A stretch of DNA of 58,205 nt, taken from NCBI GenBank assembly GCA_030038495.1, contig JASHOV010000117.1, forward strand, positions 1-58,205. Direction: 5' to 3'. Position numbers and translations under genes: made by a program. Source of the DNA: Streptosporangiaceae bacterium. Its GTDB lineage: Bacteria; Actinomycetota; Actinomycetes; Streptosporangiales; Streptosporangiaceae. The notes under the pieces are model-generated. The model had not been told where the DNA came from. It did no database searches and saw only the letters and a program-made list of their open reading frames with translations. Numbering within the stretch: the first letter of the stretch is position 1; each line of letters opens with the position of its first letter. Positions 36,168-49,069 of this stretch are shown one piece after another.

Positions 36168-37157
36168 CTAAGCGTCGCGGCGGAGGACCACGATCGCGGT
36201 GACGGCGATGAGGGCGGCGGCGAGGAGCACGAAGACGCCGGTCTCGATGCCCTGGAACGCCCAGTACCGGCTGGCCGGCTGGTAGCTGGTGAAAAACCCG
36301 CGGTATCCGTGAGCAGACAGGCAGGAAATCAATTTGACCGGACCCTGGAAGGCCAGCGGCTGGCACGCGAGCGGCATCTCGCTCACAGGTACGCCGTTGA
36401 CGGCGATGCCGGATCCGAGGGCCGGGGTGCTCAGCAGCCGGCCGCCCGGGCCGACGAGACCCTGCGAGATCAGCCAGTAGGACCCCGTCGGCAACGGCTT
36501 CATGCGGTGGCCGAATGTGTTGATGACGGTGAGCGCCGACATGTAGTGCGAGCGGAGGTCCTGGCCGATCACCAGCCGCACGAAGGCGAAGACGCCGATG
36601 GTGACGGCCATCGCGGGCAGAGTCCGGCGGATCAGTGCGCCGGCGGCGATGCCAAGGGCGACCGCGAACACCGCGTAGCCGACGGGAACGATGCCCTGGA
36701 TGTCGAACTGGCTGGGTTGGAAAATCTGCTGGTTGAGGGCGTTCACCGGGCCGGACCACCAGGTGACGAGGGCCGAGACGGCGCCGCCCCAGGCGGCAGC
36801 GGCGAGCAGTGCCCAGCCGACCTTGACGGTGAGCCAGCGGCTGCGGGTGATGCTCTGCGTCCAGGCGAACTGGCTGGTGCCGGTTTCGAATTCCCTGGCT
36901 ATCAGCGGGCCGCCCCAGAACACTCCGAGCAGGCACGGCACCACCACAGTCAGCATGATCAGCAAGGACAACAGCGGGGTGCCCAGAGTCAGCGTGAGGC
37001 TGCCGCAGCTATGGCTGAGGGTGCACGAGGTGAGGGCGGACTGGTACTGCGACGCCATCTGCCGGCCCGTGATAAATACCAAGACCGCGAACATAGCCAG
37101 CGCGGCGGCGGCGAGGTAGGCCTGGTTGCGGTGCTGGCGCCAGGCAAGCCAGGTCAT
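36168..37157 (-). CDS. ABC-2-type transporter permease
   Basis: Start MTWLAWRQHRNQ at 37157, in an ATGA overlap with the ATPase stop. ~6 TM helices. Confidence 0.75.
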   Translation of the reverse strand: MTWLAWRQHRNQAYLAAAALAMFAVLVFITGRQMASQYQSALTSCTLSHSCGSLTLTLGTPLLSLLIMLTVVVPCLLGVFWGGPLIAREFETGTSQFAWTQSITRSRWLTVKVGWALLAAAAWGGAVSALVTWWSGPVNALNQQIFQPSQFDIQGIVPVGYAVFAVALGIAAGALIRRTLPAMAVTIGVFAFVRLVIGQDLRSHYMSALTVINTFGHRMKPLPTGSYWLISQGLVGPGGRLLSTPALGSGIAVNGVPVSEMPLACQPLAFQGPVKLISCLSAHGYRGFFTSYQPASRYWAFQGIETGVFVLLAAALIAVTAIVVLRRDA

Positions 37158-38071
37158 TGATCTTCTCCAACCGCGGTGAGATGGGCTAGCGCTGGCGGGG
37201 CGTCCTGCCCGAGGTAACCCAGTACCAGTTCTTCGAGGCCGACGTCGGCCGCTTCCCAGGCGGGGTCGATGACCGGCCCGGCGCCGCGGATCAGCAGGGT
37301 GCTCTGCCGGGCCGTGTGGGTGGCCTGCACGAGCGTATGGTCCCGCTCGATCGCCGTCGTGTCCTTGCGCGGGCCGACCAGGACGCGATGCTCGGCCAGC
37401 ACCGTGTCGATGTCGCCGCACAGCTGAACCCGGGATGCTGCCAGCAGGATGAGGTGGTCGCAGATCCGTTCCAGGTCGGCGACCATGTGCGAGGACAGCA
37501 CGACGGTCAGGCCTCCGGCGGCCACCGCTTCGGCCAGGGTGGCCAGAAACTGCCGCCGGGCGAGCGGATCGAGCGCCGCGACGGGCTCGTCCAGCAGCAG
37601 CAGCCGAGGTCGTTTGGCCAGCGTCAGCGACAGTGCCACCTGGGCACGCTGGCCCCCGGACAGCGTGCCCACCGCCTGGTCCAGCGGGATGTTCAGGCCG
37701 TTCAGCCGCTGCCGCACCGAGGCGGCGTCCCAGCGGGGGTTGAGGTGCGCGCCGATCGCGATGTGATCCTCGGCGGACAGCCGCCGGTACAGCGGAATCT
37801 CCTGGGCCAGGAAGCCAATCTCGGCCAGGAACGCCGGGTCCTGCCGCGGCGAGCCGCCGAGCACCGCGACCTCGCCGCCGCTCGGCCTGGCCAGCCCAGC
37901 GAGCACTCGCAGCAGCGTGGTCTTGCCTGCGCCGTTGGGGCCGATCAGCCCGGATATCCGGCCCTCGGGCACGGAGATGGTGCACTCGGTGAGGGCGGTG
38001 ACCTTGCGGTAGCGCTTGGACAGCCCGCGGGTCTCGATCACTGGCGGGGCTGCGTCCTGTGGGTCCGTCAC
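37154..38071 (-). CDS. ABC transporter ATP-binding protein
   Basis: Walker A GPNGAGKTT, signature LSGGQRAQ and Walker B LLLLDEP. GTGA overlap with the GntR stop. Confidence 0.9.
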   Translation of the reverse strand: MTDPQDAAPPVIETRGLSKRYRKVTALTECTISVPEGRISGLIGPNGAGKTTLLRVLAGLARPSGGEVAVLGGSPRQDPAFLAEIGFLAQEIPLYRRLSAEDHIAIGAHLNPRWDAASVRQRLNGLNIPLDQAVGTLSGGQRAQVALSLTLAKRPRLLLLDEPVAALDPLARRQFLATLAEAVAAGGLTVVLSSHMVADLERICDHLILLAASRVQLCGDIDTVLAEHRVLVGPRKDTTAIERDHTLVQATHTARQSTLLIRGAGPVIDPAWEAADVGLEELVLGYLGQDAPPALAHLTAVGEDQ

Positions 38072-38745: not shown

Positions 38746-38794
38746 TTAGCGGGAAGGGTTAGGGGCCTGTCGGGCCCCTAACCCTTCCCGCTAA
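38746..38794. repeat. Perfect 22-bp inverted repeat with a 5-nt loop in a divergent intergenic region
   Basis: ttagcgggaagggttaggggcc-tgtcg-ggcccctaacccttcccgctaa. Confidence 0.9.
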
Positions 38795-38908: not shown

Positions 38909-40591
38909 TTGTGTGTCGTAGGTGGTGAGACGGACGTGACAGGCGATGCATCGGGGTATCGCGAGAATGGGTGGTGGCGGAATGAGACCTTCCTTGATGA
39001 CCTGCGGCGCGATGCCAAGGAGGTCCCGGAGAAGCCGGCGCTGATCGCGTACCGGGAGCAGGACGCGCAGACCCGAGTCGTGAGCTTCGCCGAACTCGCC
39101 AGCCTCACCGATGGCTTCGCGTCGGCCCTGGTCCGCCTCGGCGTCGGGACCGGTGACGTGGTGGGCGTGCAGCTGCCGAGCTGGTGGCAGGTCGCGCCGC
39201 TCGGCCTGGCCTGTGCGCAGGTTGGCGCGCGCCTGTGTTTACTCCTGCCCATCTACCGGCGCTACGAGCTGGAGCACATCCTGCGGCTGACGGGCGCTCG
39301 TGTCTGCATAACAGTGACCGAGTGGGGCGGGGTACGGCTGGCAGACATCGTGGCCGATCTGGCGCTACAGCTGCCATCGCTCGAGCACGTCGTCGTCGCC
39401 GACACGGTGCCCGGCATCGCACGCCCGGCCGGGACGCTGGACTTCGCAGACGTCTTTCGCGCGGCACCGGCGGCCGAGCCGGCGGCTCCCGCCGATGCCG
39501 CTCCCGGCCCGGACGATAACGAGGTTCGCGAGCTAGGGCCGGACGAGCCGTTCCTGATCTTGTTCACCTCTGGCACGACCGGCGAGACCAAGGGAGTGGT
39601 GCACAGCCAGAACACCCTCTACGCGGGATGCCGCGCGTATGCGCGCCCGCTCGGCCTGGACGGTTCGTCGGTGATCTTCGTGGCGCACGCGGCCACCCAC
39701 TACACCGGCTTCGTGCTGGGCATGCTGCTCCCGATCATGCTGGGCTGCCGGGCGCTGGTGCAGGACGTCTGGGACGTGGACGTCCACCTCGACCTAGCCG
39801 AACAGCACGGCGTGACGACCTTTTACGGCGGGCCGCATATCCTTGCCGACCTGATCACCGCGCAGCGTGCGGCGCCGCGTGATGTGAGCCGACTTGCCAG
39901 CATCGTCACCGGGTCCGCGCCCATTCCGCCGCACGTGGTCGAGCAGGTGTCTGAGGTACTGGGCGCCAGGGTGTTCGCGCTCTGGGGCATGACCGAGAAC
40001 GGCACGGTCACGATAACCCGGTCGTCTGACCCGGTCGGCTGGGCCGCGCACAGCGACGGCAGCGTGATTGACAGCATGGAGTTGCGCATCGATCCCTCGG
40101 CGGTCGGCGGCAGCAGCGACGGATCGGGCCGACTGTGGGTGCGCGGGGCGAACCAGTGCCTCGGCTATTTCGGACGCGACGAACTGTACGCGGCTGCGCT
40201 CGATGAAGATGGCTGGTTTGACACCGGTGACCTGGCCCGCGACGACGGCCGCGGCGGCATCAGGATCAGCGGCCGGGTCAAGGACGTCGTCATACATGAG
40301 GGCGTCAACGTGCCGGTGGCTGAGGTCGAGGGCATCCTGGCGCGGCATCCGAGCGTCAGGGAGGTAGCGCTCATCGGCGTGCCCGACCGCGGCATCGATG
40401 AACTGGTCTGCGCTGTCATTACCCCGGTCGGCGACTCGCCCGGGCTCGGTTCGCTGCGTGCGCACCTGGAGACCGCGGGGGTTGCGCAGTTGTTCTGGCC
40501 GGAACGGCTCGAGGTCGTGGACGTGTTGCCGAAGACGATTACAGGAAAGGTACGGAAGACCGAGTTGCGCGAGCGCTTCGGCGGGGCCTGA
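38909..40591 (+). CDS. AMP-dependent synthetase/ligase (acyl-CoA ligase, cyclohexanecarboxylate-CoA-ligase-like)
   Basis: AMP-binding motif LFTSGTTGETKGVVHS, plus GWFDTGDLA and a C-terminal ITGKVRK. The start is TTG 38909 or GTG 38936. Confidence 0.85.
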   Translation: MCVVGGETDVTGDASGYRENGWWRNETFLDDLRRDAKEVPEKPALIAYREQDAQTRVVSFAELASLTDGFASALVRLGVGTGDVVGVQLPSWWQVAPLGLACAQVGARLCLLLPIYRRYELEHILRLTGARVCITVTEWGGVRLADIVADLALQLPSLEHVVVADTVPGIARPAGTLDFADVFRAAPAAEPAAPADAAPGPDDNEVRELGPDEPFLILFTSGTTGETKGVVHSQNTLYAGCRAYARPLGLDGSSVIFVAHAATHYTGFVLGMLLPIMLGCRALVQDVWDVDVHLDLAEQHGVTTFYGGPHILADLITAQRAAPRDVSRLASIVTGSAPIPPHVVEQVSEVLGARVFALWGMTENGTVTITRSSDPVGWAAHSDGSVIDSMELRIDPSAVGGSSDGSGRLWVRGANQCLGYFGRDELYAAALDEDGWFDTGDLARDDGRGGIRISGRVKDVVIHEGVNVPVAEVEGILARHPSVREVALIGVPDRGIDELVCAVITPVGDSPGLGSLRAHLETAGVAQLFWPERLEVVDVLPKTITGKVRKTELRERFGGA

Positions 40592-40594
40592 TCC

Positions 40595-41995
40595 GTGGCG
40601 CGGCGGCGCTGGCAGGTGCTCAGCGCTATCTGCGCCGGCGTGTTCCTTGCGGCGATCGATTTCTACATCGTGACCGTCGCCGTCCCCGACATGCTGCGCA
40701 GCTTCAGGGACGCGGGTATCGCCGAGATCTCCTGGGTATTCAACGGATACACGATCACCTTCACCGCGGCGCTGCTGCCTGCTGGCGGCCTGGCCGACAT
40801 GTTTGGCCGTCGTCGCGTCTTCCTGTTCGGCCTGGGCGCGTTCTCGGTCAGTGCCCTCGGCTGCGCGGCCGCGCCCTCGGCGGCCACGCTGATCGCCGCC
40901 AGGCTGGTCCAGGGAGCGGCCGGAGGAACGATCACGCCGCTCGCACTGCCGCTCATCCTGCCGCATTTCACCGCGGAGCGGCGCGGCTACGCGATCGGGC
41001 TGTGGAGCGCGACCCAGTCCGCGGCGATAGCCGCCGGGCCGTCGCTGGGAGGCGTGCTGGTGTCGGCGGTGGGCTGGCGCGCCGTGTTTCTGCTGCAACT
41101 GCCGATCGGGCTGGTCAGTTTCGCGGGCGCGGCCTGGGCACTCGACCGCGACCGCCCGAAGGCGCAAGGCTCCGCCGCTCCTGATCTGCTCGGCGTGCTG
41201 CTGCTCGCGCCGGCCATCGCCCTGACGTCGCTGGCGATCGTGCAAAGCCACGCGTGGGGACCCCTCAGCTGGCGCACCGACCTCACGCTCGTCGTCGGCC
41301 TGCTGCTCGGGGTGGCCTTTGTCCGCCGTTCGCTGTCCATACCGGCGCCCCTCATCGATCTCGGCCTGCTCAGAATCCGGACAATGCGGCGCGCGAGCGC
41401 GGTGATGCTGGCGACCGGGCTGGTCATGTATGCGCTGCCGGCCGCCGCTGTCTTGTTCCTGACCGAAGTATGGCGCTACTCGGAGGCGCGGGCCGGCCTG
41501 GCTGTCACTCCAGGGCCGCTGGTCCAGGGCCTCGCGGCGCTGGCCGGCGGGCGGCTGTCCAGCCGGTACGGACCGCGCGCCGTGGCCGTGCCAGGCGCGG
41601 CTTTGCTCGCCGCCAGCACGCTCGCCTTCGCCCTGGCGACCGGCAATCATGCCGGGTACTGGGCAGTGATCTTCCCGGCTGTGCTCGGCAGCGGCGCGGC
41701 CGTCGGCCTGCTGGTCACGTCGCTCAGCGCCGCGGCCCTCAGCGAGGTACCCGCCGCCCGGCTTGCATCGGGCACGTCGATCTCGGCGATCGCGCGGGCT
41801 GCCGGAGCTGTCGTTAGCCTGGCGGCACTCGCGCTGATCCTCTCGGCGGTGCCCGATGGCACCAGCACCCTGCACGCTTACCACATCGCCTGGACCTTGC
41901 TGGCCGTGCTGGCGTTTGTCGCGCTTGTGACTAGCTTTACCGTACGTAACGGAAGTGATCAGAGTGAGTCAATGTCACTTCCGTTACGCGACTAG
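40595..41995 (+). CDS. MFS transporter (DHA2/EmrB-like)
   Basis: The N-terminal block AIDFYIVTVAVPDM...GGLADMFGRRRVFLFG and ~14 TM helices. Confidence 0.85.
   Translation: MARRRWQVLSAICAGVFLAAIDFYIVTVAVPDMLRSFRDAGIAEISWVFNGYTITFTAALLPAGGLADMFGRRRVFLFGLGAFSVSALGCAAAPSAATLIAARLVQGAAGGTITPLALPLILPHFTAERRGYAIGLWSATQSAAIAAGPSLGGVLVSAVGWRAVFLLQLPIGLVSFAGAAWALDRDRPKAQGSAAPDLLGVLLLAPAIALTSLAIVQSHAWGPLSWRTDLTLVVGLLLGVAFVRRSLSIPAPLIDLGLLRIRTMRRASAVMLATGLVMYALPAAAVLFLTEVWRYSEARAGLAVTPGPLVQGLAALAGGRLSSRYGPRAVAVPGAALLAASTLAFALATGNHAGYWAVIFPAVLGSGAAVGLLVTSLSAAALSEVPAARLASGTSISAIARAAGAVVSLAALALILSAVPDGTSTLHAYHIAWTLLAVLAFVALVTSFTVRNGSDQSESMSLPLRD
41945..41988 (+). terminator. 14-bp perfect stem / 16-nt loop hairpin inside the last 50 nt of the MFS gene (candidate terminator/attenuator)
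   Basis: cgtaacggaagtga...tcacttccgttacg. No T-tract. A TTGACA promoter-like element follows immediately. Confidence 0.4.
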
Positions 41996-41998
41996 TGC

Positions 41999-42027
41999 TT
42001 GACATATGCTGAGGATCACACTGAGAT
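41999..42027 (+). promoter_or_regulatory. Candidate promoter of the aminotransferase-to-racemase operon (TTGACA-N17-TGAGAT)
   Basis: Perfect -35 hexamer and a weak -10, about 55 nt upstream of the TTG start at 42082. Confidence 0.3.
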
Positions 42028-42081
42028 TGGTAAGACCGTGATGATCCGCTCGGAATCCATCAATGGTGAGGAGTTCGGACG

Positions 42082-43419
42082 TTGACTCTGGGTAACGAGG
42101 CTTTGCTTCCGCCCCAGCGATTCCCGCAGATCGGGGACGCTGATGACGCTCGGCTCGCAATCTTTGGTGGCAGCCCGGTGCGGCGCGCGCCCTGGCCCAC
42201 GTATGACAAGGGCGCCGTCTTCGTGCACGCCGAGGACGAGGAAGCCGCGATCCGCGCTATCCGCAGCCATCTTTATTTCCGCTACGACTGGCGGCCGATG
42301 CACGAGACCGAATGCGGCCGGCTCGAGGCCGAGCTGTGCCAGTACTTCGGGACCGCCCACGCGCTGGCTACGTCAAGCGGCACCACGGCTCTGGCCCTCG
42401 CGATCATCGCGGCCGGGATACCGGCGGGCTCGGCGATCGCATTACCCGGATTCACCTTCGTCGCCACGCCCAGCGCGGTCATTCTCGCTGGATGCAAGCC
42501 CGTGCTCATCGAAGTTGACGAGAACCTGCACCTGGATCTGGCCGATCTGCGCCGCCGCTGGACCCCTGACATCAAGGCGATCCTGGTCGTGCACATGCGC
42601 GGCTTCGCGGCCGACATGGAGGCACTGACCAGCCTGGCCGCGGACATGGGCGTGCCCGTCATCGAGGACGCCGTGCCCGCGCTAGGTGCCGAGTTGAATG
42701 GCCGCAAGCTCGGCACGTTTGGCCTGGCCGGGGCCTTCAGCACGCAATCGGACAAATCACTGAACAGCGGTGAAGGCGGATTCCTCATAACTAATGACGG
42801 CGCACTCTTCGCGCGTGCCGTTGTGCTTTCCGGGGCCTACGAGGGACGTTTCAGGCAGCATTTCCCTGATGCCCAGCCACCGGTTCCTACCGATCTCGAC
42901 CTTCCGCTATTCAGTTTCCGCATGGATGAGATACGCGCCGCTCTGCTGCGCGCGGAGATGGCTCGGCTGCCGGTCCGCCTGGAAAACTTCCGGGCCAACT
43001 ACGAACACGTAGCCGCGGCGCTGCAGAACGTCAGCGAGATCGCCGTCCGGCAGCCGGTAGCGCCGGGCGCCTATCTAGGCGAGGCGCTCATCTTCCGGGT
43101 CCTGTGCGGAGACGCGGAATGGTTTGCGCGCGCACTGTGCCGCGAAGGTATCGATGCGCGCTGCTTCGGCTCGTCGCAGGACTGCAACGTCCGGGTGTTC
43201 TGGAACTGGCGGTTCATGTTCGGCACTGCGGACGTCGGGGCCATCAAGGCACTGCTGCCGAACACCTCGCGGCACCTGGATCAGGCCGTCGACATCCCGC
43301 TGTCGTCGACCCTGTCCGCAGCGGACTGCGATCAGCTGGTGCAGGCAGTTCGCAAGGTAGCCGCGGCCAGCCGGCGACAGAACCGGCGGCCGAGCGAGCC
43401 GACGGCGGCTCTGCGCTGA
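42082..43419 (+). CDS. DegT/DnrJ/EryC1/StrS-family PLP-dependent aminotransferase
   Basis: SSGTTALALAI and the PLP-lysine block FSTQSDKSLNSGEGG. GGTGAGGAG RBS before the TTG. Confidence 0.85.
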   Translation: MTLGNEALLPPQRFPQIGDADDARLAIFGGSPVRRAPWPTYDKGAVFVHAEDEEAAIRAIRSHLYFRYDWRPMHETECGRLEAELCQYFGTAHALATSSGTTALALAIIAAGIPAGSAIALPGFTFVATPSAVILAGCKPVLIEVDENLHLDLADLRRRWTPDIKAILVVHMRGFAADMEALTSLAADMGVPVIEDAVPALGAELNGRKLGTFGLAGAFSTQSDKSLNSGEGGFLITNDGALFARAVVLSGAYEGRFRQHFPDAQPPVPTDLDLPLFSFRMDEIRAALLRAEMARLPVRLENFRANYEHVAAALQNVSEIAVRQPVAPGAYLGEALIFRVLCGDAEWFARALCREGIDARCFGSSQDCNVRVFWNWRFMFGTADVGAIKALLPNTSRHLDQAVDIPLSSTLSAADCDQLVQAVRKVAAASRRQNRRPSEPTAALR

Positions 43420-43423
43420 CGCC

Positions 43424-44407
43424 ATGAGCAGACCACCGCTGAAAGTTCTCTGCATCACTGGCTGGTGCAGGAACGGCAGCACGATCATCGGCAATATCCT
43501 GGGTGAGATCCCCGGCCTCTTCCACGTGGGCGAGCTGCACTTCCTGTGGATGAACGCGGCCGGCCGGGGCTCGAACAACCTCTGCGGCTGCGGCACCGAG
43601 CTTGTACGGTGCCCGGTCTGGTCGCAGATTCTGCGAGTCGGCCGGCCGGCCGGCGTTAGCGCGGCCGAGTTCGCCGATACCGTGATTGGCCGCCAGCAGG
43701 CCTGCGTGCGGACGCGGCACACCTGGCGGGTGCTGCGTCACGAACTGGCTGGCGAGCAGATTCGCCAGCATGCCGCCTTGATGACCGAGGTCTACCACGC
43801 CACCGCGGCGCGAACCAGCGCGAGTGTGATCGTCGATACGAACAAGCTCCCGGCCGAGGCGGCGCTGCTTCCATACCTGGACGGGATCATCCCTTACTAC
43901 GTTCATCTCGTTCGCGATCCGAGGGCGACCGCTCAGTCATGGAGCCGGCAAAAGCAGTACGCCTACGTGATGCCGTCCTGGCAGAGCACGGCCTACTGGC
44001 ACGGCTTTAACCGCGCTGCGCTCGCTGTCACCCGGCGCCACCCGGATCGCTCGCTGTTCATCCGCTACGAGGACTTCATCGCCCATCCAGCGGGTGCGAT
44101 CGACGCGATGCTGCGGTTGTGCGGTGCGGAAACCGCCGCCAATCCGATGCAAGGCCGGACCGTCGAGCTTCGCACCAATCACACCGTGACCGGCAACCCG
44201 GATCGGTTCTGGTCGGGGCCCACGGTCATCCGTGACCGGGACGAGTCGTGGCACGGCCTGCCGGCCCGGTCAAAGCTGACGGCTGTGACCCTGTCCTGGC
44301 CGCTATTCCACCGGTACGGCTACCACGTCGCCGGCACGTTCCGGACAACGCCATGGCGGCCAGAAGCCGCCGCAAGGACCGCCGCAGAGCCAAGCTCTCG
44401 ACATTAA
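43424..44407 (+). CDS. PAPS-dependent sulfotransferase family protein
   Basis: 5'-PSB-like ITGWCRNGSTI and 3'-PB-like VHLVRDPRA motifs. Confidence 0.8.
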   Translation: MSRPPLKVLCITGWCRNGSTIIGNILGEIPGLFHVGELHFLWMNAAGRGSNNLCGCGTELVRCPVWSQILRVGRPAGVSAAEFADTVIGRQQACVRTRHTWRVLRHELAGEQIRQHAALMTEVYHATAARTSASVIVDTNKLPAEAALLPYLDGIIPYYVHLVRDPRATAQSWSRQKQYAYVMPSWQSTAYWHGFNRAALAVTRRHPDRSLFIRYEDFIAHPAGAIDAMLRLCGAETAANPMQGRTVELRTNHTVTGNPDRFWSGPTVIRDRDESWHGLPARSKLTAVTLSWPLFHRYGYHVAGTFRTTPWRPEAAARTAAEPSSRH

Positions 44408-44418
44408 GGAGCTCTCGG

Positions 44419-45258
44419 TTGGATCTAGGTCTGCACAACAAGGTAGCGCTCATCGCGGGCGGCTCCAGCGGCCTCGGCCTGGCGGTGGCCACCGAGCTGG
44501 CGGCCGAGGGCGCGCACGTCGCAATCGGCGCTCGGGATCGCGAGCGGCTCGCTGCCGCCGAGCGCGGCCTGAAGGAGGTGGCGCGCGGCCGGGTGTGCAC
44601 GAGCAGCGTCGACATCTCGGACCAGGACGCGGCGCGCGGGTGGGTGGACGAGGTGGCGGCCGACTTCGGCGCGCTGCACATAGTCGTGGTCAGCGGCGGC
44701 AGCCCGCCCGCCGGCCTGGCCTGGCAGTTCGACCTCGACGACTACAAGGAGTCCGTCGGCTCGGTGGTCTTCCCGCCGGTGGGCCTTGCGCTGGCGGCGT
44801 TGCCCCACCTCCGTGCCGCGCAGTGGGGCCGGCTGCTGTTCGTGGCGTCGGAGACCGCGAGCGTTCCGATCCCGTCACTGACCCTGTCCGGCATGGGGCG
44901 CGCCGCCCTCGTGCGATTCGCCCAGGCGGCCGCGGCGGAACTCGGCCGCGACGGCATCACCGTCAACGTGCTCGCGCCCAGCGCGACCCGCACCCAGATG
45001 GTGGAACGGGCGGCAGCGCGGCTGGCAGCGCTCGCGCCGGCCGAAGGCGACGCCGAGGCCCAGCTGCGCAGGATGGGTCAGCACAACGCCGTCGGCCGGA
45101 TAGCGCGACCGGAGGAATTCGCGGCGGTGGCGGTGTTCCTGGCTAGCGAGCGCGCGTCGTTCGTCACCGGCGGCGTGCACCTGATTGACGGGGGCGCCAG
45201 CGTCATGGGACCGGCACTGCCTCACTTCACCAACGCCCCGAGGGACACCTACACATGA
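44419..45258 (+). CDS. Short-chain dehydrogenase/reductase-fold protein lacking the canonical YxxxK dyad
   Basis: AAGGAG lies 7 nt before the TTG at 44419. Cofactor motif GGSSGLG. The segment expected to be YxxxK reads SGMGR. Confidence 0.8.
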   Translation: MDLGLHNKVALIAGGSSGLGLAVATELAAEGAHVAIGARDRERLAAAERGLKEVARGRVCTSSVDISDQDAARGWVDEVAADFGALHIVVVSGGSPPAGLAWQFDLDDYKESVGSVVFPPVGLALAALPHLRAAQWGRLLFVASETASVPIPSLTLSGMGRAALVRFAQAAAAELGRDGITVNVLAPSATRTQMVERAAARLAALAPAEGDAEAQLRRMGQHNAVGRIARPEEFAAVAVFLASERASFVTGGVHLIDGGASVMGPALPHFTNAPRDTYT

Positions 45259-46106
45259 CACACGCCTATACCGAACAGGACGTTGAAGACTTCTTCGATG
45301 AGACGCTGCCGAACTATCTGGGATTCTGGGATAGCGACGGTGTCCTGCACACCGGTTATTTCTCTGGCGACGCCGACAGCAACTATCCGGCGGCAGCCGA
45401 GCGGACCTCGGCGATGCTGGCCGCGCGGGCCGGGATCGGCGGCTCGTCTTATGTGCTCGATGTGGGCTGCGGCTGCGGCAACTTCCTGACCTATCTGGCG
45501 GGTCACGCCGGCTGCCGTGGCGAGGGCGTGGATCTGAGCGAGGAACGGGTCAAGTTCGCCCGGCAGCGACTCGCCGCGGTCAGCCCCGGCCAGCAGGGTC
45601 GCGTCGCCTTCCGGCATGGCTCGGCGACGCGGCTGCCCTACGAGCCCGCCACCTTCAGCCATGTCGTCAGCCAGGACGCGCTCTTCCTGGTGCCCGACAA
45701 GGCCCGCAGTCACGCGGAGATCTATCGCGTGCTCAGGCCAGGCGGGATATTCGCGTTCTCGGACTTCCTTCAGCCCGTCGCCGATATCGGGGAACGCGCC
45801 AGAAAACACGTGTACGACCGGGTGCGATGGAGCGGCGGCTATTCGCTCGCCGGATACCAGGCCGCGCTGGAAGAGGCCGGCTTCGAGATCAGCCTCGCCG
45901 ATGACCTGCAGGACCACATCCGGCAGACCTATCGGGTTCTCGGCGTGACCGCGCGCGAGCGTGCCGACACGACACAAGATTCTGCCGCGCGTGAGTGGAT
46001 GCTCACCTTCGCGCAATCATGCGGCGAGATCCAGGCGGCCATCGATCGTGGCGAATTCGGCTGGGGAATGATCGTCGCTCGCAAGCCAGACAACGCCGGC
46101 GCATAG
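45255..46106 (+). CDS. Class I SAM-dependent methyltransferase
   Basis: VLDVGCGCGNF and LRPGGIFAF motifs. ATGA overlap with the SDR gene. Confidence 0.8.
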   Translation: MTHAYTEQDVEDFFDETLPNYLGFWDSDGVLHTGYFSGDADSNYPAAAERTSAMLAARAGIGGSSYVLDVGCGCGNFLTYLAGHAGCRGEGVDLSEERVKFARQRLAAVSPGQQGRVAFRHGSATRLPYEPATFSHVVSQDALFLVPDKARSHAEIYRVLRPGGIFAFSDFLQPVADIGERARKHVYDRVRWSGGYSLAGYQAALEEAGFEISLADDLQDHIRQTYRVLGVTARERADTTQDSAAREWMLTFAQSCGEIQAAIDRGEFGWGMIVARKPDNAGA

Positions 46107-46123
46107 CCTAGAGGGGAAACGTC

Positions 46124-46999
46124 ATGCAGCAGACGGCCGCGGTCAAACGAACGATGGCGGAAGTGGTCGCCGAGCGACAGCAGCAGATGTCGCCGGGCCG
46201 GATATTCGCCGAGGCATGTGCCACCAGCGGCCTTGAGACGTGTGTCGAGTTCGACGTCACGATCACCGATTCGCTGACCAGCTCGCGGCGGAAGCCGCGG
46301 TACCCGGCGCGCAATATGCTCAAGGTTGTCGACCTGTCGAAAGACCCGCGCCGTTATTACTGGCATGAGACCGCGCCGCGGCCGGATGACCCGAAGGTTA
46401 CCTATTCCGACCTCCGACCCGAGGTCGCGCACCACTTCCACAAGTCGCCGGTCCCGGAACTGTCCGCGACGACCGCCTGGGTCCAGGTCCCGCCGGACCT
46501 GTGGGAGGACGCCGAGACCTTCGAGTCCTTCATCAACTACCGGCTGATCATCCGCCTCGGCACGGCCGAGAATCACACGATCATTCGCAGCCGGGGCGGG
46601 CTGCTGAACATCCCCGGGATCGCGAGGATGACGTCGCCGGGCCCGTTCGCGTCCACCATCCTGGCCGCGTGCAACGAGGTCGAGCAGATGGGCGCCACCG
46701 CCGACGGGCTCATCATCAACCCGGCCGACTACTACCAGTTCGTCGGGCAGGGCCGGCTGATGGACGATCTGGAGCAGAACGGCGTCTTCATCGTGCGCAC
46801 GCGCCTGGTCGATCCCGGAACCGCGATCATCGGCGACTTCGGGCATGGCGCCCAGCTCTTCGACGCCGGTCGCTCGGTAATCCGCTTCGCCGACCCGCCG
46901 CCGGGGACATTCGCCGAGCCCGGAATTGCGCTGATGGCCGAGATCTACGAACAGGTCGTGGTCAACCTGCCGACTAATTTCTTCGTCGTCAGCATCTAG
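46124..46999 (+). CDS. HK97-fold major-capsid-like protein = encapsulin-like nanocompartment shell candidate
   Basis: The C-terminal two thirds align by eye with HK97 gp5 blocks. GLLN matches GLLN. ADGLIINPADYYQF matches SGIVLNPRDWHNI. AIIGDFGHGAQLFDAGRSVIRFA matches FTVGGFDMASQVWDRMDATVEVS. LMAEIYEQVVVNLPTNFFVV matches LCEERLALAHYRPTAIIKG. There is no delta/scaffold domain and no portal, protease or terminase nearby. GAGGGGA RBS. Confidence 0.8.
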   Translation: MQQTAAVKRTMAEVVAERQQQMSPGRIFAEACATSGLETCVEFDVTITDSLTSSRRKPRYPARNMLKVVDLSKDPRRYYWHETAPRPDDPKVTYSDLRPEVAHHFHKSPVPELSATTAWVQVPPDLWEDAETFESFINYRLIIRLGTAENHTIIRSRGGLLNIPGIARMTSPGPFASTILAACNEVEQMGATADGLIINPADYYQFVGQGRLMDDLEQNGVFIVRTRLVDPGTAIIGDFGHGAQLFDAGRSVIRFADPPPGTFAEPGIALMAEIYEQVVVNLPTNFFVVSI

Positions 47000-47004
47000 C
47001 GCCC

Positions 47005-48285
47005 ATGCGCGGTGATCCCGATGTGCTGATCATCGGCGGCGGCGCGGCCGGCCTTTTCTGCGCCTATCACCTGCGCCGGCGCGGCAGGAGCGTCGCGGTG
47101 CTGGAACGCGGCACCGTGGGCGGCGCGCAGTCCTGCTCGTACGGCAACACGGGATTCGTCGGCACGCACGGGGCTGCGGCCCTGGCCGAGCCCGGCATGC
47201 TGGCCGCGGGACTGCGCGGCCTGCTCAATCCCGCTTCCGCCGTCGCCATCCGGCCACTCGCCGACGCCGATCAGCTCCGGTGGCTGTGGCATTTCCGGCG
47301 GGCATGCGCCGACCGGAGCGCCGCGGCCCGCCTCGGCGTCCTGGTCGACATGAAGCGGCGAAGCCTGAGCATGCTTCGCGAGCTGGCCGCGGACCGCGGT
47401 CTCGGCGCGACCTTCGCGATGCCGGGCATGGTGCTGGCGTTCAGGACCGACCAGGCATTCGAGCGGGCGCGGGCCGGCCTGCCGGCCATGGCGGACCGGG
47501 GTGTACCGCTGCGCGCACTGACCCCGGCGGAGCTGCGTTCCCTGGAACCAGATGCCGACTTCGCCATCCGCGGCGCCCTGTACAACGAGGAGGGAGCCTT
47601 CGTCCGCGTCCCCGGGTTCATCGTCGAGCTTGCCCGGCTGCTCGTCGAATCCGGGGTAGAGATTCACTCGCAGGCCGAGGTCACCGGCTTTGACAGTTCC
47701 GGCGGCCAGGTGGATCGGGTGCGGACGACCGGCGGGACGTTCCGGCCCGGTCATGTGGTGATCGCGGCCGGGGCGTGGTCGGCGCGGTGCGCGCGCATGC
47801 TGGGGGTCAGGCTCACGCTGCAGCCGGTGAAGGGCTGCAGCATCACGGTCAGGGCGCCGGGCAACGGACCGCGGCGACCGGTCCTGCTGGCCGAGGACAG
47901 GGTGGCAGTCACGCCGCTTGGCGACCAGCTCAGGTTCGCCGGCGTCATGGAGGTGTCCGGCATGAACCCTGCGGTCTCGTCCCGGCGCATGGCCGGGGTT
48001 CGCCGCATCGTCCGCGCCTACCTGCCGCGGATGACCAGCACCGAGACCGTCGAGACCTGGAGCGGCCTGCGCCCGTGCGCGCCAGACAGCCTCCCGTTCC
48101 TGGGCCGGGCCGAGCCGTATCGCAACCTGTACATCGCGGCCGGCCACGGGCAGATGGGAATGGGCCTGGCCCCGGCCGGCGGGGAACTGGTCGCGCAGGC
48201 CATCGCGGGCGAGCAGGCGGACCTGGACCTGGCGCAGTTCCGCATCGACCGGTTCGGCAAGCCCTCGGCCGGCCGCCGGTCATGA
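47005..48285 (+). CDS. FAD-dependent oxidoreductase (DAO family, D-amino-acid dehydrogenase/oxidase-like)
   Basis: N-terminal dinucleotide fold DVLIIGGGAAGLFCAYHLRRRGRSVAVLE. It starts 5 nt after the shell gene stop. Confidence 0.85.
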   Translation: MRGDPDVLIIGGGAAGLFCAYHLRRRGRSVAVLERGTVGGAQSCSYGNTGFVGTHGAAALAEPGMLAAGLRGLLNPASAVAIRPLADADQLRWLWHFRRACADRSAAARLGVLVDMKRRSLSMLRELAADRGLGATFAMPGMVLAFRTDQAFERARAGLPAMADRGVPLRALTPAELRSLEPDADFAIRGALYNEEGAFVRVPGFIVELARLLVESGVEIHSQAEVTGFDSSGGQVDRVRTTGGTFRPGHVVIAAGAWSARCARMLGVRLTLQPVKGCSITVRAPGNGPRRPVLLAEDRVAVTPLGDQLRFAGVMEVSGMNPAVSSRRMAGVRRIVRAYLPRMTSTETVETWSGLRPCAPDSLPFLGRAEPYRNLYIAAGHGQMGMGLAPAGGELVAQAIAGEQADLDLAQFRIDRFGKPSAGRRS

Positions 48286-48998
48286 CCGGTACCGAGCGGC
48301 CAGACGTCGCGATCGGCGTGCTGTGCCTGGACACTGCGTTCACGAAGATTCACGGCCATATCAGGAACCCGGCAACCTTCGGCTTTCCTGTTGCCTACAA
48401 GGTGGTGCCGGGCGCGACGGCGGAGCGGGTGGTAAGCCAGGCCGATCCGGCGCTGCTGGAGCCGTTCATCAGCGCGGCAAGGGAACTCGAACAAGACGGC
48501 GTGGCGGCGATCACCAGCGCGTGCGGATTCCTCGTCCTGTTCCAGCGTGAGCTGGCCGGATCGGTCAGCGTCCCGCTGTTTTCTTCGAGCCTGATCCAAC
48601 TGCCCATGGTGCATCGCATGCTGCGCCCGGATCAGAAGGTCGGGCTGCTCGTCGCCAGAGAGCAATCTCTCACCCGGCGTCATCTGGCCGCAGTTGGTGC
48701 CGAGTCGGTGCCGATCCGCGTCGCCGGGATGGACGGGCAGCCTGAGTTCCGCGAGGTGATCCTTGAGGCCCGGCGCGCCGACCTCGACGCCGGTCGCCTG
48801 GGCCAGGAGGTTCTCCGCGTCGCAGCGGGTCTCGTCCGCGGCAATCCCGACATCGGAGCGCTCGTGCTCGAGTGCACCGACCTCGTGCCGTTCGCGCACG
48901 CGATCCAGGCACGAGTCGGCCTGCCGGTCTTTGACATCGTCACGCTGACCGAGATGGTGCACCAGACCCTGACCCGCCGCCCCTACGGCTCGGCCTAG
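48282..48998 (+). CDS. Asp/Glu/hydantoin-racemase-family protein
   Basis: Start at the ATGA overlap at 48282. Paired catalytic-Cys motifs ITSACGF and LECTDL. Confidence 0.8.
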   Translation: MTGTERPDVAIGVLCLDTAFTKIHGHIRNPATFGFPVAYKVVPGATAERVVSQADPALLEPFISAARELEQDGVAAITSACGFLVLFQRELAGSVSVPLFSSSLIQLPMVHRMLRPDQKVGLLVAREQSLTRRHLAAVGAESVPIRVAGMDGQPEFREVILEARRADLDAGRLGQEVLRVAAGLVRGNPDIGALVLECTDLVPFAHAIQARVGLPVFDIVTLTEMVHQTLTRRPYGSA

Positions 48999-49041
48999 AC
49001 CGGATACCCCTCGCCGCGGACACGCGGAGAACTGGTCCGGC

Positions 49042-49069
49042 TTGACATATGTCGATAACGGAATATGAT
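49042..49069 (+). promoter_or_regulatory. Near-consensus promoter TTGACA-N16-TATGAT
   Basis: Read directly. The A of the in-frame ATG at 49076 lies 7 nt after the -10 element, which fits a leaderless transcript. Confidence 0.5.

Follow-up and report, generated by a model that had tools for sequence, protein, structure and literature searches.

The locus analysed here raises the question of why a capsid-like protein is encoded in the middle of a set of metabolic enzymes, and what those enzymes make. The window, which is the whole 58,205-nucleotide stretch of DNA that was analysed, comes from an uncultured Streptosporangiaceae-like actinomycete, whose genome is a MAG that is 88% complete. Nine co-directional genes occupy positions 38909–48998 of the plus strand, and Pfam and NCBIfam profile searches assign them to the families listed here together with two sequence elements:

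38909..40591, plus strand: AMP-dependent ligase, acyl/aryl-CoA ligase type (Pfam AMP-binding, 1.4e-60)
40595..41995, plus strand: DHA2-family MFS efflux transporter (MFS_1, 1.5e-43; TIGR00711 EmrB-type, 203 bits)
41945..41988, plus strand: stem-loop of 14–15 bp within the 3' end of the MFS gene (RNA fold)
41997..42008, plus strand: 12-mer GCTTGACATATG, containing a perfect -35 hexamer, in the gap before the DegT gene
42082..43419, plus strand: DegT/DnrJ/EryC1-type PLP aminotransferase (DegT), first gene of the conserved core (PF01041, 5.3e-59)
43424..44407, plus strand: PAPS-type sulfotransferase (Sulfotransfer_3, 5e-11)
44419..45258, plus strand: atypical SDR-fold protein (adh_short_C2, 5e-37)
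45255..46106, plus strand: SAM-dependent methyltransferase (Methyltransf_11, 4e-21)
46124..46999, plus strand: Family 3 encapsulin shell protein with the HK97 fold (NF041188, AF2 model, Foldseek)
47005..48285, plus strand: DAO-family FAD oxidoreductase, similar to D-amino-acid dehydrogenase/glycine oxidase (PF01266, 1.6e-65)
48282..48998, plus strand: Asp/Glu-racemase-superfamily protein (NF005679/PRK07475, PF01177)

The original prediction had described a nine-gene co-directional block with these functions, forming a tight operon around the shell protein. The strand, the families and the capsid-like shell at the centre all agree with that description, and the junctions, which measure +3, +86, +4, +11, -4, +17, +5 and -4 nt in gene order, reproduce exactly the gaps of -4 to +17 nt given for the last seven genes.

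The block is very probably a new copy of a Family 3 encapsulin biosynthetic system of the Micromonospora/Nocardia class. A 'Micromonospora/Nocardia' type of Family 3 'natural product' encapsulin clusters has already been catalogued (Andreas & Giessen 2021), and the block corresponds to that published type rather than to an unrecognised class of BGC, as had been proposed. The shell is 71–83% identical to members from Micromonospora, Nocardia, Streptosporangium and Nonomuraea, with class membership judged at the 55% SSN threshold of Andreas & Giessen 2021. Sros_5200 of S. roseum, which lies in SSN cluster 1 and has the colour of the node labelled 'Micromonospora/Nocardia', has the same neighbour Pfams as the shell of the window. 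The order of the type (DegT, sulfotransferase, SDR, methyltransferase, shell, amino-acid-oxidase-type and racemase-type proteins) is also that of the window, and the only gene missing is the MFS transporter within the operon. The copy adds no new class; its comparison with other copies sharpens what to test. The Pfam and gene survey of the locus identified no PKS, NRPS or terpene synthase in the block. Among encapsulins, only Family 3 has been proposed to enclose the chemistry of natural products. A compact seven-gene operon free of PKS and NRPS is a tractable model for studying the contents of such a shell and the reason for enclosing them.

The shell protein matches NCBIfam NF041188 with 319.9 bits (cut-off 180) over model positions 1–266, and its gene is present in a single copy in the genome. 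The AF2 model (pLDDT 93, pTM 0.88) is complete, with a long central helix and a helix-plus-strand N-terminal extension made of helices 11–20 and 24–38 and strand 40–43, all ahead of the core, which agrees with the extension described for Family 3 in a 2024 review (PMC11664910). The best Foldseek match is the HK97 prohead protein gp5 (E 2e-18, TM 0.66–0.71), and Family 1 shells are matched with E of about 1e-10; the PDB entries searched include no Family 3 structure. The HK97 fold is common to the shell, gp5, and Family 1 and 2 encapsulins. Unlike gp5, the shell does not contain a scaffold/delta domain, and the locus lacks portal, protease and terminase genes. Unlike Family 1 and 2 encapsulins, the shell has no match to Linocin_M18 (PF04454), and no C-terminal targeting peptide was recognised in the neighbouring enzymes; no terminal motif is common to the six enzymes of the operon. 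Among 77 species, relatives of the shell are 57–96% identical, and more than 80 residues, spread through the entire fold and including elements of the P-domain and A-domain, never vary. In five actinobacterial orders the shell gene keeps one place within the operon.

The conservation of the operon was determined from 77 species-genome loci, and the denominators for individual genes are the loci with enough flanking sequence. With strand and gene order conserved, DegT is present in 69/70 loci, the sulfotransferase in 72/73, the SDR in 73/73, the methyltransferase in 48/75, the DAO-family protein in 70/74 and the racemase-like protein in 71/74, so that co-occurrence in other genomes is strongly positive. 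The seven-gene core is co-linear in about 70 of the 77 species genomes, from Streptosporangium, Nonomuraea, Nocardia, Micromonospora and others, and the arrangement is therefore beyond chance. Of the 69 loci whose flanks were long enough, 62 have the same order, whether or not the methyltransferase and in-operon MFS genes are present, and the count rises to 65 if three loci with an appended AMP-ligase/MFS pair are included. The sulfotransferase and the SDR-fold protein are the partners that accompany the shell invariantly; the pair is encoded directly upstream of it with the methyltransferase gene (45255–46106) interposed, and is kept in 72–73 of 73 loci. The methyltransferase is optional in the class and missing from the whole Nocardia branch. 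The DAO-family and racemase-like proteins are dispensable, since they are missing in some relatives (L016, L064, L075 and L086); amino-acid oxidase/racemase chemistry, which the original prediction placed at the core, is thus peripheral. The operon is carried by 21 of 151 genomes of the family (14%) and by 5 of 401 of the class, a patchy distribution typical of accessory metabolism.

The conserved unit comprises seven genes, or eight with the usual in-operon MFS, and not the nine first proposed, but the link of the AMP-ligase and MFS genes to Family 3 systems stands. The usual transporter has 12 TM and is encoded between DegT and the sulfotransferase, where 63 of 70 loci have a spacing of 2.2–2.8 kb with the MFS gene inside. 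The window and loci L016 and L115 have no MFS gene there, and instead a DHA2 MFS gene lies directly upstream of DegT; together with the AMP-ligase, it forms a rare sub-arrangement common to the three loci. Compared with the in-operon MFS of relatives, whose place it takes, the DHA2 transporter is only 27% identical over 103 aa. That one exporter can be exchanged for an unrelated one speaks for export as the last step of the pathway. The closest NCBIfam model to the AMP-ligase is cyclohexanecarboxylate-CoA ligase (421 bits, under its cut-off), and its translation may begin a few codons further on, since relatives align from about residue 17. Homologues of the AMP-ligase with 42–66% identity adjoin Family 3 shells in seven loci of the same class and seven of distant classes, whereas paralogues in its own genome are at most 32% identical, and reciprocal best hits score 403–514 bits against 143–189 for the next. 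A specific AMP-ligase lineage travels with the shell across classes, and the ligase and the DHA2 transporter constitute a separate, variably placed (mobile) accessory module that is truly linked to Family 3 systems.

Beside shells that are only 27–35% identical to that of the window, the sulfotransferase is 39–51%, the SDR 39–50% and the AMP-ligase 42–58% identical, which reciprocal best hits confirm. These three proteins form a module found in more than one Family 3 class. The distant loci L089 and L109 are LysX/Y/Z/K and transketolase clusters (DADH-type, carrier-protein), and in DADH-type clusters (L089, L094, L101, L108 and L111) an orthologous sulfotransferase, a Ser/Arg SDR and an AMP-ligase adjoin a Family 3 shell. 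In contrast to them, the window lacks LysW/X/Y/Z/K and transketolase, so that its substrate is not carrier-bound DADH. The chloromyxamide cluster of Myxococcus sp. MCy10608 is the only cluster containing Family 3 with a known product; along with the Family 3 shell, the legend of Fig. S8 lists an AMP-dependent synthetase and a SAM methyltransferase for it, as in the window, whereas its NRPS/PKS, LysW and chlorination chemistry have no counterpart there.

Catalytic residues are intact in three of the core enzymes: the DegT lysine, the sulfotransferase motifs and the cysteine pair of the racemase-like protein. The catalytic Lys of DegT, within SDKSL, is invariant among relatives, and the PDB neighbours of DegT are Kdo8N transaminase (5k8b, 1e-38), 2-deoxy-scyllo-inosose aminotransferase (5w70) and Fic25 (8gyh/8gyj, 6e-31). 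The sulfotransferase motifs GWCRNGST and VRDPR are invariant, and an APS kinase encoded in the genome would account for PAPS supply. In the PDB, the sulfotransferase has a single sequence match, the polyketide-synthase sulfotransferase domain 4gox (4e-5); in domains of this type, sulfation turns a hydroxyl into a leaving group. The methyltransferase is closest to the D-glucose O-methyltransferase 6uv6, with MitM and 3bus as further PDB neighbours. The DAO-family protein scores 255 bits against PRK00711, which is under the cut-off of that model, and matches glycine oxidase 4ysh at 2e-36. The racemase-like protein, whose real start is the ATG at 48282, scores 286 bits against NF005679/PRK07475, above the cut-off of 231, and contains two conserved cysteines, Cys81 and Cys198 (SACGF, ECTD).

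The SDR-fold protein, which starts at a TTG at 44419 with AAGGAG ahead of it, retains the Gly-rich nucleotide motif GGSSGxG. However, the catalytic Tyr-x3-Lys is replaced by Ser-x3-Arg in the copy of the window, in 56 of 57 orthologues, and in all 13 of 13 SDRs adjoining distant Family 3 shells. A classical SDR oxidoreductase encoded at 44419–45258 is ruled out by the missing dyad, and the protein is predicted to be unable to act as a classical dehydrogenase. The published scheme, in which the SDR is a reductase feeding the sulfotransferase (Andreas & Giessen 2021), therefore needs revision. The nearest PDB entry, 2z1n (129 bits), has the same substitution. We take 2z1n to represent the APE0912-like atypical SDR subgroup, CDD 'BKR_like_SDR_like', and we know of no member of that subgroup with a known reaction. 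The Ser/Arg subgroup is also found outside encapsulin operons, in 2z1n and in a paralogue (C641), but the encapsulin-linked SDRs are an orthologous set of their own. In this class they have a conserved C-terminal tail, GP-x-LPH-L/F-T ... DTYT, which no other core enzyme has and which is absent from the 256-aa SDR of the distant locus L089.

Based on these enzymes, a pathway to an aminated, sulfated and methylated product can be proposed. A small polar keto/hydroxy substrate would be converted to an amino alcohol by DegT transamination, and the neighbouring hydroxyl (or the amine) would be sulfated with PAPS. The product would then be methylated and exported by the MFS transporter. The shell may assemble around the step of the sulfotransferase and the SDR-like protein and confine a reactive or toxic intermediate, while the DAO-family and racemase-like proteins may prepare or recycle a precursor of the amino-acid type. 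The block does not encode a substrate-defining enzyme, which counts against this explanation, as does the lack of a uniform pathway outline, given the losses of the DAO-family and racemase-like proteins and the absence of the methyltransferase from Nocardia. The missing Tyr/Lys dyad of the SDR, the lack of a terminal motif common to the enzymes and the absence of any Family 3 shell demonstrated to assemble (PMC11664910) also weigh against it. Retention of the sulfate in the product falls somewhat short of an even chance; its use as a leaving group is less likely, and the remaining probability belongs to something else.

A pathway in which sulfation makes the hydroxyl beside the DegT amine a leaving group is possible, although we consider it unlikely. 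Elimination or ring closure would yield an electrophile such as an aziridine, confined by the shell; the MitM-like methyltransferase may N-methylate it, and the Ser/Arg SDR may bind the sulfate ester or aid the departure of sulfate. In azinomycin- and vazabitide-type pathways, sulfation of DADH is followed by attack of the adjacent amine, which expels the sulfate and closes the aziridine ring (PMC9570651, citing Kurosawa 2022). That amine, next to the sulfated hydroxyl, is installed by the DegT-type Fic25 (PDB 8GYJ; PMC11726168), which DegT of the window matches, and Family 3 shells with an orthologous sulfotransferase and SDR occur inside LysX/Y/Z/K and transketolase clusters. The match to 4gox and the presence of MitM among the closest solved relatives of the methyltransferase point the same way. 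However, DegT is nearer to the Kdo8N and inosose aminotransferases than to Fic25, and the best match of the methyltransferase is a sugar O-methyltransferase. The operon has no unassigned ORF for an aziridine synthase of the AziU3/U2 or Vzb10/11 type, the unannotated ORFs in L089 and L109 have no PDB match, and the block contains no gene for resistance to, or repair of damage by, alkylating agents. We speculate, with considerable doubt, that all Family 3 encapsulins enclose a sulfotransferase, a Ser/Arg SDR and an AMP-ligase for sulfate-ester activation of an amino alcohol to an electrophile (an aziridine or elimination product), with the shell as containment and the SDR as a new sulfate-ester-handling enzyme instead of a dehydrogenase.

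Two explanations without biosynthesis inside a shell are less probable. The pairing of a DadA-like oxidoreductase with a racemase is typical of catabolism, and the block is free of PKS, NRPS and terpene synthase, as would be expected of a nanocompartment in which an amino alcohol or D-amino acid imported by the MFS transporter is degraded by the racemase, DAO-family enzyme and aminotransferase, with a toxic aldehyde or keto intermediate retained by the shell as in bacterial microcompartments. Such a catabolic or detoxifying role is improbable: sulfation with PAPS and methylation with SAM would be an expensive and atypical investment for a catabolic pathway, the transporter is of the DHA2 drug-efflux type, and the presumed catabolic pair is dispensable whereas the sulfotransferase and SDR are invariant. 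The embedding of sister classes in natural-product clusters and the patchy distribution also argue against it. The capsid-like gene could instead be a domesticated phage remnant that no longer forms a compartment and acts, for instance, as a scaffold or regulator, with the enzymes free in the cytoplasm. Its fold is nearer to gp5 than to Family 1 encapsulins, the enzymes carry no recognised targeting peptide, and no Family 3 shell has been demonstrated to assemble or load cargo (PMC11664910). Nevertheless, the conservation of the shell over 77 species, its fixed place in the operon and its complete fold model make this very improbable. On the evidence of gene content, the shell is not part of a prophage: portal and prohead protease (PF04860, PF04586) have no match in the whole 88% complete MAG, the shell has no match in PHROG, and its neighbours are metabolic or regulatory, with no phage genes nearby.

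Within the biosynthetic system, the block probably consists of two transcription units, the upstream AMP-ligase and DHA2 efflux pump (38909–41995) and the core operon (42082–48998). The hairpin and the TTGACA promoter proposed between them are both present as sequences. However, the hairpin at 41945–41988 has no T-run or U-tract and the terminator scan makes no call there, and the consensus promoter scan found no acceptable -10 hexamer behind the TTGACA at 41999–42004, so the division into two units remains putative. The hairpin could separate the units, either as a terminator of the U-less kind or as an element at the mRNA end, and a promoter in the 86-nt gap ahead of DegT is plausible. The TTGACA is a perfect -35 hexamer. 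The surrounding 12-mer recurs as an identical copy at 49040–49051, over an ArsR promoter, and the promoter scan accepted only this copy (at 49042). The two exact copies compare with 0.14 expected.

The nine co-directional genes of the block, on the + strand, have the families that the original prediction gave them, in agreement with Pfam and NCBIfam.

Genes of the block (coordinates, strand, product, supporting database)
within 38909–48998, + strand, AMP-binding ligase (Pfam, NCBIfam)
within 38909–48998, + strand, DHA2-type MFS transporter (Pfam, NCBIfam)
within 38909–48998, + strand, DegT/DnrJ/EryC1 aminotransferase (Pfam, NCBIfam)
within 38909–48998, + strand, Sulfotransfer_3 sulfotransferase (Pfam, NCBIfam)
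start TTG 44419, + strand, SDR protein (Pfam, NCBIfam)
within 38909–48998, + strand, class I SAM methyltransferase (Pfam, NCBIfam)
within 38909–48998, + strand, 291-residue shell protein (NCBIfam NF041188; no Pfam match)
within 38909–48998, + strand, DAO-type FAD oxidoreductase (Pfam, NCBIfam)
48282–48998, + strand, Asp/Glu-racemase-superfamily protein (PRK07475, above cut-off)

The SDR gene starts at the TTG codon at 44419, preceded by AAGGAG, and the racemase-like gene at the ATG codon at 48282, which overlaps the stop codon of the DAO gene; the mechanical open reading frames of both began too far 5′. With the corrected starts, the tight packing claimed for its last seven genes is exact, and the successive junctions measure +3, +86, +4, +11, −4, +17, +5, and −4 nt. 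The third-position GC content is 0.80–0.89 in all genes of the block except the racemase-like one, the mechanical reading frame of which (47775–48998) failed the third-position GC filter, and its call rests on the PRK07475 match. The block is flanked by GntR and ABC ATPase genes upstream and by genes for ArsR and AHSA1-type proteins downstream. The flanks of the seven-gene core, from the aminotransferase to the racemase-like protein, are generally not conserved among relatives.

The shell protein matches the NCBIfam model of the family 3 encapsulin nanocompartment shell protein with 319.9 bits, against a cut-off of 180. A sequence search of the PDB reached only gp5 of phage HK97 (3e-6). An AlphaFold2 model built on an alignment of 79 sequences has a pLDDT of 93 and a pTM of 0.88; a model from 30 close homologues, with a pLDDT of 53, was set aside. 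A Foldseek search with the retained model placed HK97 prohead gp5 at the top (E 2e-18, TM 0.66–0.71), followed by Family 1 encapsulins (about 1e-10), and the PDB copy searched contained no Family 3 structure. At its N terminus, the model shows the helix-plus-strand extension given for Family 3 in a 2024 review (PMC11664910). The window is one entire contig of a 700-contig MAG (88% complete), in which the shell gene is present in a single copy. A prophage remnant was ruled out by synteny, by the absence of portal and prohead protease genes from the MAG, and by the lack of a PHROG match to the shell protein.

Andreas & Giessen (2021) described the Family 3 ‘Natural Product Encapsulins’ as 132 systems in six cluster types and remarked on their conserved sulfotransferase/SDR pairs. 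Their network file contains the label ‘Micromonospora/Nocardia’, and their network places Sros_5200 of Streptosporangium roseum (291 aa) in cluster 1 (42 nodes). The Pfam families of its neighbours (PF01041, PF01266, PF07690, PF08241, PF13469, and PF13561) represent the same gene set as that of the window. Because the Micromonospora/Nocardia type had already been published, the statement that the block is not a recognisable biosynthetic class was wrong. The observed arrangement is confirmed and its interpretation partly supported. The operon adds one more member to a class that is known, has been described computationally, and is untouched by experiment; a literature search found no experimental paper after Andreas & Giessen (2021). 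The architectural variation of the window's copy is minor and consists of an exporter swap and a retained AMP-ligase.

A scan of one genome per species identified 77 loci encoding shell relatives with 57–83% identity. The carriers are Streptosporangium, Nonomuraea, Nocardia, Micromonospora, Jatrophihabitans, and MAGs. According to tblastn with the window's proteins, the core genes of the relatives are on the same strand and in the same order, which bears out the expectation that they co-occur in other genomes. Among loci with enough flanking sequence, the aminotransferase is present in 69 of 70, the sulfotransferase in 72 of 73, the SDR in all 73, the methyltransferase in 48 of 75, the DAO-type enzyme in 70 of 74, and the racemase-like protein in 71 of 74. 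The methyltransferase is absent from the entire Nocardia branch, and the DAO-type and racemase-like genes are absent in a few loci (L016, L064, L075, and L086). A Family 3 shell is encoded by 21 of the 151 genomes of the organism's family, by neither of the two genomes of its genus, and by 5 of 401 genomes in an even sample of its taxonomic class, a tally that includes the unpublished genome G163, on which no other result depends. Such a patchy distribution is consistent with an accessory operon that moves horizontally. A profile of distant shells recovered from the 401 genomes the Micromonospora/Nocardia class alone and no other Family 3 class. The operon is also present on contigs assigned to MAGs of Chloroflexi and Terriglobales (L022 and L065; shells 76–78% identical), which reflects either transfer across phyla or mis-binning. 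Locus L086 (G252:C13:132800–152700) contains the variant DegT–ST–SDR–MT–shell, lacking the DAO-type, racemase-like, and in-operon MFS genes, with two tandem AMP-ligase paralogues downstream on the opposite strand, about 50% identical to that of the window.

The distance from the aminotransferase to the sulfotransferase gene is 2.2–2.8 kb in 63 of 70 loci, and the additional gene encodes a 12-TM MFS protein of about 395 residues. In the window, the two genes abut with no MFS gene between them, and a 14-TM DHA2 MFS is encoded directly upstream of the aminotransferase, an arrangement common to the window, L016, and the metagenome locus L115. The DHA2 transporter is unrelated to the in-operon MFS of the relatives (27% identity over 103 residues, E 7e-4). 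The exchange of the exporter for a non-orthologous one speaks for export as a function under selection in the system. Of the roughly 81 loci of the class, just 7 (L012, L036, L074, L075, L086, L115, and the window) have the AMP-ligase near the core, in three different positions, and its presence therefore at first seemed accidental. Close to the AMP-ligase/MFS pair, L012, L016, and L074 encode an alpha/beta hydrolase, an unannotated 257-residue protein, and an ABC ATPase related to the product of the window's upstream ABC gene (37154–38071), which hints at a larger accessory block around the pair.

Chance co-location of the AMP-ligase and MFS genes with the core was ruled out by the recurrence of orthologues beside other Family 3 shells. 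A metagenome scan with a six-sequence alignment as the query, used as a 16-sequence alignment held no stretch conserved enough, provided 30 loci with shells mostly 24–35% identical to that of the window, those of L113–L115 being closer (43–68%). In these loci, homologues of the sulfotransferase (39–51%) and of the SDR (39–50%) directly adjoin the shell gene, and the order at distant shells is either shell–ST–SDR or ST–SDR–shell. AMP-ligase homologues (42–58% identity) are nearby in 8 of the 30 loci, including L115, which belongs to the window's own class. The 13 other AMP-ligases of the window's genome are at most 32% identical to that of the operon, and distant AMP-ligases match the operon gene with 403–514 bits, against 143–189 bits for the second-best match. 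The sulfotransferase has no paralogue elsewhere in the genome. The orthologues beside distant shells, together with these paralogue checks, indicate that AMP-ligase, sulfotransferase, SDR, and shell probably form a module older than the split of the Family 3 classes. The inclusion of the AMP-ligase in the block was thus right, on grounds of which the original prediction had no view. The main interest lies in this comparison rather than in a single copy, since it brings out an invariant module of sulfotransferase, Ser/Arg SDR, AMP-ligase, and shell.

The catalytic Tyr-x3-Lys position of the SDR reads Ser-x3-Arg in the window; both residues are kept in 56 of 57 orthologues, and Ser-x3-Arg is present in all 13 SDRs adjoining distant shells. 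The protein retains its Gly-rich nucleotide motif and, upstream of the dyad position, the A-S-E-T/S block. Its closest relative of known structure, 2z1n (129 bits), shares the substitution, as does a second SDR of the genome, 35% identical and outside any encapsulin context (G000:C641:12305–13099). Since these two proteins share it, Ser-x3-Arg is a trait of a wider, uncharacterised SDR subgroup extending beyond encapsulin operons. A literature search on 2z1n (APE0912) found nothing beyond its listing in an SDR review. Judged from these residues, the protein does not belong to the classical dehydrogenases, and the substitution undercuts the published scheme, according to which a ketone is reduced by the SDR and the resulting hydroxyl is then sulfated. 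The C-terminal tail of the SDR, about 20 residues long, is conserved within the class and could be a docking peptide; since it is missing from the SDR of the distant-class locus L089 and shared by no other enzyme, this reading is only a lead. No targeting peptide shared among the termini of the enzymes was found.

The operon enzymes look functional from their conserved residues: the catalytic Lys of the aminotransferase, the sulfotransferase motifs GWCRNGST and VRDPR, and two Cys of the racemase-like protein are kept. The closest solved relatives of the aminotransferase are Kdo8N transaminase and 2-deoxy-scyllo-inosose aminotransferase, which act on free keto-sugars or inososes, and Fic25, which converts a keto precursor to the amino alcohol DADH (PMC11726168). 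The sole solved sequence relative of the sulfotransferase is the sulfotransferase domain of a polyketide synthase (4gox). The methyltransferase is closest to sugar O-methyltransferases and MitM, and the DAO-type enzyme to glycine oxidase and DadA. The racemase-like protein has no sequence match in the PDB and only generic Asp/Glu-racemase clusters in the ESM Atlas. Residues 54–63 of the sulfotransferase (43583–43612) contain a Cys-x-Cys-x6-Cys cluster, invariant in 32 orthologues, which may be a metal site. This cluster is not known as a usual trait of Sulfotransfer_3 proteins.

The best-supported outline of the pathway is transamination, sulfation, methylation, and export. A small polar hydroxy-ketone would be transaminated, and a nearby hydroxyl, or the amine, would be sulfated. 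The product would then be methylated in most lineages and exported. The DAO-type and racemase-like enzymes may work on a precursor or co-substrate of amino-acid type, and the sulfotransferase/SDR-like step would take place inside the shell. PAPS can presumably be supplied by the APS kinase encoded elsewhere in the genome (C386). The distant loci L089 and L109 are carrier-protein clusters annotated with LysX ATP-grasp, LysZ kinase, LysY semialdehyde dehydrogenase, LysK M20 peptidase, and a split transketolase, which correspond to the machinery of DADH type known from the vazabitide, ficellomycin, and azinomycin pathways. In related DADH pathways, the neighbouring amine displaces sulfate to form an aziridine (PMC9570651), which makes a leaving-group role of the sulfate a serious alternative in the window's pathway. 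However, the operon contains no aziridine-synthase candidate, and none was found in L089 and L109, the unannotated open reading frames of which have no PDB match. The L089 cluster encodes its own CysN-like GTPase (L089:13286–14932), which suggests a dedicated PAPS supply, whereas the window's operon lacks one and the APS kinase is on another contig. The possible link of the module to sulfate-activation chemistry is testable in the compact operon of the window.

The predicted TTGACA hexamer is present at 41999–42004 in the 86-nt gap before the aminotransferase gene, preceded by a 14–15-bp hairpin at the end of the MFS gene. Since the hairpin has no U-tract and a consensus promoter scan of the gap found no −10 hexamer, a split into two transcription units between the MFS and aminotransferase genes is only likely. 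Between the divergent GntR and AMP-ligase genes, in a region of 448 nt, positions 38746–38794 form a perfect inverted repeat (22 bp, loop of 5 nt), and no gene ends there. The 12-mer GCTTGACATATG is identical at 41997–42008, before the aminotransferase gene, and at 49040–49051, over the promoter of the ArsR-family gene; 0.14 copies are expected, and 2 of 100 shuffles reach two copies. The second copy is part of the near-palindrome TTGACATATGTCGA. The ArsR-family protein might control both GCTTGACATATG sites, but in no relative is its gene conserved beside the operon.
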